A DNA stretch of 22,173 nucleotides, from contig CAYQPU010000030.1 of NCBI GenBank assembly GCA_964419615.1, positions 1-22,173 of the forward strand. The letters are read 5' to 3'. The notes beneath the pieces are model-generated. The model saw only the letters and a program-made list of their open reading frames with translations. It was not told the DNA's origin and ran no database searches. This DNA is from an uncultured Methanosarcinales archaeon (GTDB lineage Archaea > Nanobdellota > Nanobdellia > Woesearchaeales > JAGVZT01). The first letter of the stretch is position 1; every line of letters begins with the position of its first letter. The translations under genes were made by a program, and so were the position numbers. This document shows positions 16,964-22,173 of this stretch, piece by piece.

Positions 16964-18208
16964 ATGAATTTAGACGTACTAACTATTGTTCTAGCAGGTG
17001 GAGAAGGAAAGAGACTAAGACCTCTAACAGAACATAGAAACAAACCAGCAGTGCCCTTTGCTGGAAGATATAGGTTAGTTGACATTCCACTAAGCAATGC
17101 AGTGAATTCCGGTTTGGATATGATATATGTTTTGACTCAAGGAAAGGATTATTCATTTACTAGACACTTACAAAATACTTGGGCTTTGGATAGAATACAA
17201 GGTTTTGTTGTTCCCTTTTCACCTCAATCAGTTGGAGGTTTTTACAAAGGAGATGCAGATGCAGTTAGGCACATGATTCCATTCATTCAGAGAAGTGATC
17301 CTGAATTTGTGTTAATTGTACCAGGAGATAATGTGGTAAAAATGGACTATTCTCTTTTTGTGCAACAACTGGCTAATACAAAAAACGCTGATTTTGCCAT
17401 CTCTGTTGTTGAAATGCCAGTAGAACGGGCAGGTGACCTTGGCACAGCCGAACTAGACAAAAGTTCTTTTATTACAAAATTTCTTGAAAAAGATCCAAAT
17501 CCTCCATTTAGAGCTTCAGATAATAAACATGTTTTTGCATCTATGGGCACCTACTTGTTCAGAACTGAATTATTGCTTGAAGTATTAGAACAAAGTAGTG
17601 GGGTTTTGTTTGGATCACAAATAATACCTGAAGTAATGAGACAAGAAAAAACATTTGGTTATAATTTCACAGAGCATAATGCAGTTCCAGGAGTCATCAT
17701 TGATCTTGATTCAGGAAAAGAAGTGCTTGTAGATAAATCCCTTGATTCTGGGTACTGGGAAGATGTGGGTAAGCTTCCTGATTTCTTCAGAGTGCACATG
17801 GAAGACATATTGGGTGATTCTCTTAGGTTTGTACCATATACTCCAAGTGATATTCACAATCCAGAAATTCTTAGAAGAACATGGCCGTTTTACACACATG
17901 AAAGACTAATTGGCCCAGGTCATGTAAGTGGAAATCTTAAGAATGTACTAATTAGTGAAGGTGTTCATATATCTGAGTCAGAAGTTGAAACCTCTGTATT
18001 GTCTCCTGGTGTCACAATTGAAAATTCAAGTGTAACAAATTCAATTATTTTTGATGGAGCTTACATTAAAAACAGCAATTTGGATAATGTAATAATAGAC
18101 AAGCATTCAAAAGTAATTGATTTAGTTCTACCGGATACTCAAATTCCAGAAGGAATATATCAACATGAGTCAGGAATAGTTGTTGTACCTAGAGCTTATG
18201 GAAGATAA
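16964..18208 (+). CDS. glgC: Glucose-1-phosphate adenylyltransferase (ADP-glucose pyrophosphorylase), divergent
   Basis: LAGGEGKRLRPLTEHRNKPAVPFAGRYRL, YKGDADAV, PGD, FLEK, ASMGTY and YWEDVG motifs; C-terminal beta-helix. Confidence 0.88.
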   Translation: MNLDVLTIVLAGGEGKRLRPLTEHRNKPAVPFAGRYRLVDIPLSNAVNSGLDMIYVLTQGKDYSFTRHLQNTWALDRIQGFVVPFSPQSVGGFYKGDADAVRHMIPFIQRSDPEFVLIVPGDNVVKMDYSLFVQQLANTKNADFAISVVEMPVERAGDLGTAELDKSSFITKFLEKDPNPPFRASDNKHVFASMGTYLFRTELLLEVLEQSSGVLFGSQIIPEVMRQEKTFGYNFTEHNAVPGVIIDLDSGKEVLVDKSLDSGYWEDVGKLPDFFRVHMEDILGDSLRFVPYTPSDIHNPEILRRTWPFYTHERLIGPGHVSGNLKNVLISEGVHISESEVETSVLSPGVTIENSSVTNSIIFDGAYIKNSNLDNVIIDKHSKVIDLVLPDTQIPEGIYQHESGIVVVPRAYGR

Positions 18209-18245
18209 CGAACAATATAAATATGATAATCTAATATGACAAAAT

Positions 18246-18986
18246 ATGAGACTATTACCTGACATGCAAGCAAGTGCAGCCACACTAATGGCAACAGATG
18301 AAGCAATACTTACAGCCATCACTGAAAACAAATCACCTCCAACAGTTAGGTTCTATCAATGGACACCACCTGCAGTCACAATTGGGTATTTTCAAAATCC
18401 ACAAAAGGAAGTAGACTTAGAATATCTAAAACAAAACAAAATTGATCTTGTTAGGAGAATCACAGGAGGTGGAGCAGTTTATCATGACAAAGAATTAACA
18501 TACACTCTCTTTGTACCAACTGATCAAATATCAGAAGATATTCTTGAAAGCTATAAAATAATCTGCGGAGCAATTGTTAATGGATTAAAAACAATTGGAA
18601 TCAATGCACAATTTTCACCTATAAATGATCTATTAATCAACAATAAAAAATTCTCAGGCAATGCTCAAACAAGAAAAAATGGAATAATCATGCAACATGG
18701 CACAATTCTTTTAGAAGTTGACAAAGATAAAATGTTCTCGGTTCTAAACATAACAAAAGAAAAAATCTCAGACAAACAAATCACAGAATTAAAACAAAGA
18801 GTAACTTCTCTATCAGCTGAAACCAAAATCAAAGATTTTGCAAAAGTAAGAAATGCTCTTGTTGAAGGATTTGAGCAACAATTCAATACAGAATTCACTT
18901 TGGGACAATTAACAGAATATGAAATAAGACTTCAAGCAGAGTCAATAATAAAATATCAAAGTAAAGAATGGACATACAAAAGATAG
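18246..18986 (+). CDS. lplA: Lipoate-protein ligase catalytic subunit (LplA/LipM family)
   Basis: MATDEAIL, VTIGYFQ, VRRITGGGAVYHD, KKFSGNAQ and QHGTIL motifs. Confidence 0.9.
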   Translation: MRLLPDMQASAATLMATDEAILTAITENKSPPTVRFYQWTPPAVTIGYFQNPQKEVDLEYLKQNKIDLVRRITGGGAVYHDKELTYTLFVPTDQISEDILESYKIICGAIVNGLKTIGINAQFSPINDLLINNKKFSGNAQTRKNGIIMQHGTILLEVDKDKMFSVLNITKEKISDKQITELKQRVTSLSAETKIKDFAKVRNALVEGFEQQFNTEFTLGQLTEYEIRLQAESIIKYQSKEWTYKR

Positions 18987-19231
18987 ATAAAAAAATACCA
19001 GGAGGTAAACTACTTAGAGTTGAATTTGCCAAAGATAAAGATAGAGTTACCTATATCAAAATAACAGGGGATTTTTTTATATACCCTGAGAAATCAATTG
19101 AACAAATTGAAAAAATCATCCTTGAAAATAATTTGATTAAACTAGAAGATAAACTCAATGAACACATAGTAAAAAACAAGATTCAGATAATAGGCTTTAC
19201 TATTAGTGATTTAATAAACATAATAAAATAA
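18968..19231 (+). CDS. lplB: Lipoate-protein ligase C-terminal accessory domain encoded separately (LplB-like)
   Basis: PGGKLLRV...IKITGDFFIYPE..IE.IE; overlaps lplA by 19 nt. Confidence 0.8.
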   Translation: MDIQKIDKKIPGGKLLRVEFAKDKDRVTYIKITGDFFIYPEKSIEQIEKIILENNLIKLEDKLNEHIVKNKIQIIGFTISDLINIIK

Positions 19232-19241
19232 AAAAAAAGAA

Positions 19242-20156
19242 TTATTGTTCATAATCCAACATACCAAAGTGATCCAACACTTCCTCGATAAACTTCTCTT
19301 GGGCTTTTTCTTTTTTCAGATACTGACCACCAAAGAATCTATCGTTCTCGTATCTCTCTTGACCTACAAAAGGATGGTGATGTCTAGCTCCTTTGTTCTT
19401 ATACATTTCATCCAAAGCATCCATTGCATCATACAATCCTTCAACAAAATCATAGCCAGCTCCTTCCAGTAATGACTTTGCAGCTTTAAGAGAACACAAT
19501 CCAATTTTTCTGTTGTATCTATCAGCGTATTTAGGACTCGTCATTAAATCCCCAACTCCTCCCATAATCAAACTAATGCCTACCCCATAAGCTCTATCAC
19601 TGGACCCCTCTATATAGACATTCTCTAGATCCCAATCAAAATAGGTTTGGGTTGTACCAGATTTTCCCACAAACAATAACTCATCCACTGATACTCTCTC
19701 TATTTTCTGAAATGACGGTGAAACAGCTTCATTACGTTCACCAAGTAAAAACTCTGATGCACCAAGTTGTCCAACCAATTCTCCAGTACTAAGTCTATGT
19801 AATCCATGCAAACCATATGGAACTTTAATTTCTTCTTCCTCTTCTCTTAATTCAACATTAAAAGAGTGGATTAATTCAACAAGTCCTGCAATATTATCGC
19901 TATCTATTCTATGAGACAGACCAGAGACTGAATTGAACACTTCTGCAACTAAAGGTTCAACAGTAATCTCATTCCATGTATCTGATGATCTTCTATCAAT
20001 TAGATAGTTAGAAATAATTGCACTAAATAACCCAAGCTCTTGGCGAGCAGCTTGTACATCGTCACTAAATTCTACACTATACCACTTACTGTTTTCTGAT
20101 AATAAACTGGAAGTATGTTCCAGTGTTTCCAATAAACTTATTATTTGCTTTTTCAT
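19242..20156 (-). CDS. Hypothetical acidic protein; paralog of the C-terminal part of the 21111-22173 ORF
   Basis: Colinear shared motifs ELGLF, TGE.VGQ, FDW, G.DF.E.L, PF..Q.RY and F..EVL.HF. Confidence 0.85.
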   Translation of the reverse strand: MKKQIISLLETLEHTSSLLSENSKWYSVEFSDDVQAARQELGLFSAIISNYLIDRRSSDTWNEITVEPLVAEVFNSVSGLSHRIDSDNIAGLVELIHSFNVELREEEEEIKVPYGLHGLHRLSTGELVGQLGASEFLLGERNEAVSPSFQKIERVSVDELLFVGKSGTTQTYFDWDLENVYIEGSSDRAYGVGISLIMGGVGDLMTSPKYADRYNRKIGLCSLKAAKSLLEGAGYDFVEGLYDAMDALDEMYKNKGARHHHPFVGQERYENDRFFGGQYLKKEKAQEKFIEEVLDHFGMLDYEQ

Positions 20157-20309
20157 AACTAATGAGAATGGAACTTAATTTAAAAGAACTTCTCATGTTT
20201 TTTACTTAAAAGGGGCAACAAACCATGATTAATTCCACTAAAAACATATTTTCTTATATAAATATCCTTAACTGCTGGAAAAAGGCACAAAAAATGTGGA
20301 AAAGTAAAG

Positions 20310-20325
20310 CAAAAATATTTATAAT
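20310..20325 (+). promoter_or_regulatory. BRE-TATA promoter of ZIP gene
   Basis: CAAAAATATTTATAAT about 22 nt before ATG 20347. Confidence 0.55.
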
Positions 20326-20346
20326 CTCAGCAAACTACTATTGTAT

Positions 20347-21072
20347 ATGCTACTGACAATACTCTCAGCAGTTCTTATAGTTAGTTTAATCTCTCTAGTA
20401 GGGGTTTTCTTTATATCTCTAAGCAAAAAGAAACTCAATAGAATCGTTAATTACCTTGTGGCAATAGCATCTGGTGCTCTGTTAGGTGGAGCTTTTATTC
20501 ACATTCTCCCTGAAATCATGGAAGCTGGTCCGCAAATGTTCTTGTTTGTCTTATTTGGAATCCTGTTCTTCTTTTTGCTTGAAAAAATCATGTATTGGAG
20601 ACACTGTCATGATGGAGAATGTACAGTACATGCATTCACATACTTAAGTCTGATTGGAGATGCAGTTCACAACTTTATTGACGGAATAATCATATCAACA
20701 GCATTCTTAGTATCAGTTCCAATAGGAATCTCAGCAACAATAAGTATAATATTCCATGAAATCCCTCAAGAAATAGGAGATTTCGCTGTTATGATCTATG
20801 GTGGGTTTTCAAAGAAAAAAGCACTAATGTATAACTTTCTATCAGGTGCAACAGCTTTACTCGGAGCAATTGTTGGATACTTTTTATCATCAATCACAGG
20901 AATAATTCCAATTCTATTAGCTCTCTCAGCAGGAGGATTCATTTACATTGCATCCTCAGATCTAATTCCCGAACTTCACAAAACAAAGAAAATCACAGCC
21001 TCATTAATACAATTTGGATTAATAATATTTGGGATATTGGTAATGCTTGGATTAAAGTTGGTGTTTGAGTAG
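20347..21072 (+). CDS. ZIP-family divalent metal (Zn/Fe/Mn) transporter
   Basis: GALLGGAFIHILPE, HCHDGEC loop, GDAVHNFIDG, HEIPQEIGDF and YIASSDLIPE motifs. Confidence 0.92.
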   Translation: MLLTILSAVLIVSLISLVGVFFISLSKKKLNRIVNYLVAIASGALLGGAFIHILPEIMEAGPQMFLFVLFGILFFFLLEKIMYWRHCHDGECTVHAFTYLSLIGDAVHNFIDGIIISTAFLVSVPIGISATISIIFHEIPQEIGDFAVMIYGGFSKKKALMYNFLSGATALLGAIVGYFLSSITGIIPILLALSAGGFIYIASSDLIPELHKTKKITASLIQFGLIIFGILVMLGLKLVFE

Positions 21073-21110
21073 CTATCTCTAATAACTCTTATTAATTAGA
21101 ATGTTTTAGT

Positions 21111-22173
21111 TCAAGAATACTCCATTTCACGGAAATGCAGGAGAACTTCCTTTACAAAAGCTGTTTCAGCCGGCTTTCTTTCAAGAGGTTTAGCCCCAAA
21201 TTCATTACCTTCTCTATACCTTAATTGGTTTTTGAACGGATCACATCCTCCGGACTCTACTGAGTTTTCAACAGCAGATTCTAAAACTTCAATAAAATCA
21301 CCACCTGCTTGATCAATTAGGATTCTTGCGGTTTCAATCATCCTAAAACCCATATGAACATAAACTTCAGAATTAAATCTTGATCCTTTCATCATTTCAT
21401 ATCCACCATCAAGTATTAAATGGCTGCTATCAGCAATTATTTCTTCGCTTGTCCCCGGGTGATATACCTGCGTTGGACCCCAATCAAATTGTAATACGAG
21501 ACCACCCATATTGCCCTCATACAATGGACCATTATCAGATGGAATTCTAGTAATTTTATGACATAATGGAGATCTTGGAATATTATTCTTATCAAGCAAA
21601 AAATGCAGTGACGCACTCTGACCAACAAACTCTCCTGTATCCATCTCGTATGTACTTGGAATACTTTTGGCAATATCTAACTTAGTTGTTGATCCCTCTT
21701 CATGTAAATCATCATTAAATTCTCTTAATAATTCAACAAAAGTGTCAATAGTAAACTCATTAACAGTTGATCTAACTTCAAATGCACCAGTAGAAACCGC
21801 TTCAACCACACTGTTAAGAGCATTAGGAGTCCATTCCAAAGATTTTTTATTGAATCTAGTAATTGTTTTAATATAAGCTGTAAATAGACCAAGTTCAGTA
21901 ACAGCAGCTAGCATCTGGTAGCCCAAACCTTCATTTAAATAATCATGACTAGCCTGAGTAAGTCGATGTGCAATGTCGTCTATTCTTTCAATTAATTGAT
22001 TAAATTTGAGTATAACATCTGTAAATCTTTTTTGCATTTCTTCTGGACCAACTTTCAATTCTGTAATAAGTCTATCAACTTTGTTAATAAATAAAACAGG
22101 CTTAACTCTTTCACGCAGTGCTTGCTTGATTACAGTCTCTGTCTGTGGCATAATACCTTCAACAGCACAAGCT
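21111..22173 (-). CDS. Chimeric ORF: archaeal elongation factor EF-2 G-domain fragment (about 21988-22173, 5' truncated by the window) fused in frame to an orphan domain paralogous to 19242-20156
   Basis: [50 protein letters not shown] is EF-2 sequence including G4 NKVD. After FNQLIE the sequence leaves EF-2 and matches the neighbouring orphan. Confidence 0.8.
21988..21999. repeat. Perfect 12-bp palindrome TCAATTAATTGA at the EF-2/orphan junction
   Basis: Read directly from the sequence. Confidence 0.8.

Follow-up and report, generated by a model that had tools for sequence, protein, structure and literature searches.

The open reading frame (ORF) that seems to join a piece of EF-2 to an orphan protein is very probably a metagenome assembly artefact at a contig end and no real feature of the genome, a conclusion that we draw from sequence comparisons. 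The window that we analyzed, 22,173 nt in length, is an entire contig (C30) of assembly G000, which consists of 64 contigs totaling 1.48 Mb (completeness 99.4%, contamination 2.3%), and the EF-2 piece occupies its terminal 172 nt. These 172 nt would stem from another DPANN archaeon in the sample, as a part of its EF-2 gene that became linked to the beginning of the orphan gene via a common AT-rich stretch of at most 22 nt. The orphan gene itself would, in the real genome, be a free-standing ORF of 300 codons with its own ATG, located directly downstream of an acetate kinase gene that was assembled on contig C34, and the only real EF-2 gene would be the intact copy on contig C7.

As deposited, the ORF lies on the minus strand (22172..21111), comprises 353 aa, and is open at the window end. 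It starts with 57 to 64 codons of an EF-2 G domain (with the residues ...FINKVDRL...EEMQKRF), which are followed, with no stop in between, by 296 of the 300 codons of the orphan protein. The features discussed below are as follows:

22002..22173, minus strand: EF-2 G-domain tip, apparently foreign, 172 nt, 57 codons including NKVD (G4), up to the contig end; Pfam GTP_EFTU.
21980..22001, minus strand: junction word of 22 nt, AATCAATTAATTGAAAGAATAG, encoding NQLIERI and compatible with both the EF-2 and the native orphan reading.
21111..21979, minus strand: remainder of the native orphan gene, corresponding together with the junction word to codons 5-300 and the stop.
20341..21072, plus strand: ZIP-family metal transporter gene between the two orphan paralogs; Pfam PF02535 Zip, E = 3e-42.
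19242..20156, minus strand: stand-alone orphan paralog, P0243, 304 aa, 29-30% identity (E = 1e-28 / 3e-23).
G000:C34:96-1232, minus strand, and L021:1-318: acetate kinase gene, directly upstream of the orphan gene; Pfam Acetate_kinase.

The original prediction had read the end of the window as EF-2, running without a stop into the orphan paralog and lacking the rest of EF-2, and all of this was confirmed. Residues 2-92 of the ORF match positions 101-151 of the 188-position Pfam profile GTP_EFTU (E = 2.4e-11). Over its first 64 residues, the ORF shows 95% identity to P0121, an archaeal EF-2 of full length, and its orphan part shares 29% identity with the paralog encoded at 19242-20156 (-), while no other EF-2 domain was found on the entire contig. 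Compared to archaeal EF-2 (aEF-2, fusA), the tip corresponds to the stretch from just after G3 through NKVD (G4) and the next helix, which amounts to no more than about 60 of the roughly 730 residues. The ORF does not hold a complete G1-G5 domain: G1-G3 would fall beyond the contig end, G4 is present, and orphan sequence stands in the place of G5. Likewise, a Pfam search of the 353-aa ORF revealed none of the domains II-V (GTP_EFTU_D2, EFG_III, EFG_IV, and EFG_C), all of which P0121 and the EF-2 encoded on C7 do possess. An intein or another insertion within EF-2 was considered as well and rejected, since behind the stop of the ORF the ZIP transporter gene follows in convergent orientation, and a C-terminal part of EF-2 is absent.

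In other assemblies of the same sequence, the join is absent. A protein search retrieved P0001, a protein of 300 aa that starts with MKPHNQLIERI and that, from NQLIERI on, corresponds to the window ORF with a single differing residue. It is encoded on a contig of JGI 3300009314 (L004), and a second protein, P0242, is encoded on a contig of 2204 nt from JGI 3300009320 (L021). Both contigs have the same layout: about 66 nt of spacer separate the C-terminus of an acetate kinase (Pfam PF00871, E = 2e-28) from the codons ATG AAA CCG CAC, with which the orphan gene begins, forming a stand-alone 300-aa ORF there. The native start thus reads ATG-AAA-CCG-CAC-AAT, with its first four codons not present on C30. 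The identity of the window to both contigs begins exactly at position 22001, and the orphan gene in the window is 100% identical to L021 and 99.9% identical to L004. Furthermore, L021 connects the two G000 contigs: nt 1-385 are 100% identical to G000:C34:29-413 (the acetate kinase side), nt 397-2204 are 100% identical to C30:22001-20194, and only 11 nt, TGAAACCGCAC, lie between these matches. Therefore, C34 and C30 are true neighbors, and no EF-2 sequence is located between them. The search for the same fusion in other assemblies, which the original prediction had recommended, accordingly yielded the unfused gene in L021 and L004, and no homologous fusion was found among 1.84 billion representative proteins. 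An EF-2 N-terminus was found in none of the three members of the orphan protein's 90% cluster.

That the 300-aa form is the full-length native protein is indicated by its end-to-end alignment with the 304-aa paralog P0243, with which it is collinear from Met1-Lys2 to the C-terminus. A TATA-like TTTATAA is located about 23 nt before the ATG of the orphan gene, and a similar box precedes the ATG of the paralog by about 22-23 nt, a spacing that suggests that both genes give rise to leaderless archaeal transcripts.

The two sides of the join appear to stem from different genomes. An intact fusA elsewhere, which had been proposed as a point of comparison, is indeed present on contig C7, where the genome's own EF-2 gene forms an uninterrupted frame of 729 codons with the G1-G4 motifs and the later domains. 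However, the tip is only 65% (aa) and 73% (nt) identical to this gene, compared to 95% (aa) and 85% (nt) identity to the EF-2 P0121, encoded on the metagenome contig L020 (Ga0222658_1007570); over their full length, P0121 and the C7 EF-2 are 58% identical. The codon differences between the tip and P0121 comprise 23 synonymous and 3 non-synonymous changes, indicating that the tip comes from an EF-2 gene under normal constraint. Taken together, the tip seems to be an EF-2 slice of another lineage and no decaying duplicate of the resident gene. Its database matches bear the names of Woese-, Pace-, and Nanoarchaeota, with the tip itself being foreign to the genome. No further P0121-like EF-2 piece was found anywhere in the 99%-complete bin. 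When metagenome contigs were scanned with 30-mers for the EF-2 parent, only L020 was retrieved, which at 85% nt identity is a relative, while genome contigs, queried with the junction-spanning sequence as well as with the EF-2 part only, and viral contigs, queried with the EF-2 tip, gave no match.

The DNA at the junction suggests how two such sequences could have been connected. In a blastn alignment, the EF-2 reading of L020 extends from 22172 to 21980, while the match to the native orphan gene sets in at 22001, so that the 22-nt word at 21980-22001 is compatible with both readings. The join is in frame and follows the fourth codon of the native orphan ORF, and at this site EF-2 proteins carry FNQLVERL (L020) or FNRLIERI (P0002). 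However, since the closest EF-2 in the collections scanned, that of L020, agrees with the word at 20 of 22 bases, the length of 22 nt is only an upper bound for what the parents share. In the assembly, six pairs of contig ends have overlaps of exactly 55 nt, which we take to be the mark of a de Bruijn assembly with k = 21/33/55 (SPAdes defaults). A shared word of 22 nt exceeds k = 21 and is sufficient for a collision at that k. Moreover, G000 alone contains 1,939 repeated 21-mers, compared to 1,027 repeated 33-mers, which indicates that short words shared by chance are common in this AT-rich DNA. The false join, the exact route of which we infer, may therefore have arisen while a de Bruijn assembler of the SPAdes type worked with its small k, or from a chimeric read; template switching at the same microhomology would produce such a read and yield an equal result.

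In these respects, C30 resembles the chimeric contig ends of de Bruijn metagenome assemblies, with a short terminal foreign tip, two parent organisms, and what may be a short common word. The lack of a counterpart of the join in other assemblies of the population is likewise in line with known chimeras, and the 55-nt overlaps point to a multi-k de Bruijn assembler. What sets C30 apart is that the evidence comes from the comparison of assemblies, rather than from a coverage step or a lack of spanning read pairs. The possibility of an assembly or amplification chimera, raised by the original prediction as one of three options, is thus supported by the unfused orphan gene that follows acetate kinase in two independent assemblies.

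Further non-native sequence was found at contig ends around the same gene. In another assembly of the same population (JGI 3300009128), the contig L022 (Ga0118727_1052729) matches the window with 99.98% identity along 3,984 nt, but its positions 1-107 are GC-rich foreign DNA joined to the orphan gene at window position 21944, and the gene caller made a chimeric protein of 285 aa (P0241) from this join. This different foreign tip demonstrates that contig-end chimeras do occur on the DNA of the orphan gene. Furthermore, at the end of C34 that faces C30 (G000:C34:1-28, corresponding to L005:1-28), 28 nt differ from L021 and L004. This tip contains a perfect 14-nt palindrome, GGATTATATAATCC, and matches neither the viral contigs nor any other place in the genome. 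We rejected the idea that nearby sequence had given rise to the C34 tip by folding back, as no approximate copy (<= 5 mismatches) was found elsewhere in the genome. Neither the C30 tip nor the C34 tip overlaps any other contig end. Both tips may be artefacts of an AT-rich promoter with weak coverage, or they may mark the edges of a real insertion.

The latter corresponds to the alternative that survives best, namely that the assembled strain carries a real structural variant, in which the foreign 5' third of an EF-2 gene recombined into the start of the orphan gene at a microhomology of roughly 22 nt, replacing 11 nt that include the native start codon and creating an in-frame hybrid ORF of G domain and orphan protein. 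It would be in line with such a variant that both G000 ends at this site are non-native relative to L021 and L004 (28 nt of C34 and 172 nt of C30), as expected from an insertion, and that the join is in frame and located inside the shared word. However, the assemblies behind L021 (100% identity) and L004 (99.9%) do not show the variant, the 99%-complete bin contains no other part of a P0121-like EF-2, and neither tip leads to another contig end. Moreover, the unrelated and obviously foreign GC-rich tip on the same gene in L022 argues against it, as does the G domain itself, which is cut after G4 and lacks G5 and domains II-V; a G domain that ends after G4 is unlikely to be a functional unit. 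We therefore regard a real variant as improbable. The specific form that it would take, with the first ~185 EF-2 codons of another DPANN archaeon residing in the orphan gene of the sampled strain and a hybrid with a truncated G domain being encoded beside the intact native EF-2, is very improbable.

A genuine translational-GTPase fusion that originated from a partial duplication of the organism's own fusA was the first option of the original prediction, and the continuous reading frame would be in agreement with it. Nevertheless, this option is contradicted by the far greater similarity of the fragment to the EF-2 of another lineage than to the resident one (95% compared to 65% at the aa level, with 73% nt identity to the latter), by the lack of a homologous fusion among the representative proteins, and by the unfused gene found at 100% identity elsewhere, which together leave it hardly any probability. 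While only an EF-2 fragment is visible in the window, an integration or rearrangement that disrupted fusA, the second of the suggested options, is equally remote, given that the EF-2 gene on C7 is intact in its 729-codon frame and that the bin lacks a second P0121-like EF-2 piece.

A contig-end chimera, which thus remains by far the best explanation, has consequences for how the genome is read. If the ORF were accepted as it stands, it would be annotated as a new type of GTPase fusion or be tallied as another, broken copy of the EF-2 marker gene, which would inflate estimates of contamination or duplication for this presumed DPANN genome. Its interpretation as a chimera removes this false novelty and restores the gene model of a stand-alone orphan protein of 300 aa with its own start. 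In addition, contig order is gained, with C34 placed next to C30 across a gap of 11 nt. New biology does not arise beyond the orphan family itself, which, as far as sequence searches can tell, has two members and is private to the species. A phmmer search of the 1.84 billion representatives retrieved no family member other than P0001 and P0243, the orphan protein had no Pfam match even at E <= 10, and a feature search of the ESM Atlas gave no usable match. AlphaFold2, run with a two-sequence alignment, predicted a mostly helical yet unreliable structure (mean pLDDT 45.8).

The two orphan paralogs (19242-22001, -) flank the ZIP metal transporter gene, and this neighbor is also found in L021, L022, and L023. 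A further contig, L024 (ENA ERZ23498658, scaffold_50370), represents a strain variant that is 98.9% identical to window positions 18164-21784, with 19 mismatches and 2 gaps; the lipoate-ligase gene in L024 is apparently partly shortened, with 98 aa called compared to 246 aa. On the other side of the orphan gene, it should be noted that acetate kinase is uncommon in archaea, and its presence in a DPANN-type genome may be the result of lateral transfer.

Finally, no intein was seen in the EF-2 fragment of the window. Many DPANN homologs of EF-2 (P0125, P0132, P0176, P0182, P0200, and others), with lengths of 912-1249 aa, contain the intein/homing-endonuclease Pfam domains PF14890 and PF14528, and intein-bearing EF-2 genes thus seem to be frequent in DPANN lineages.
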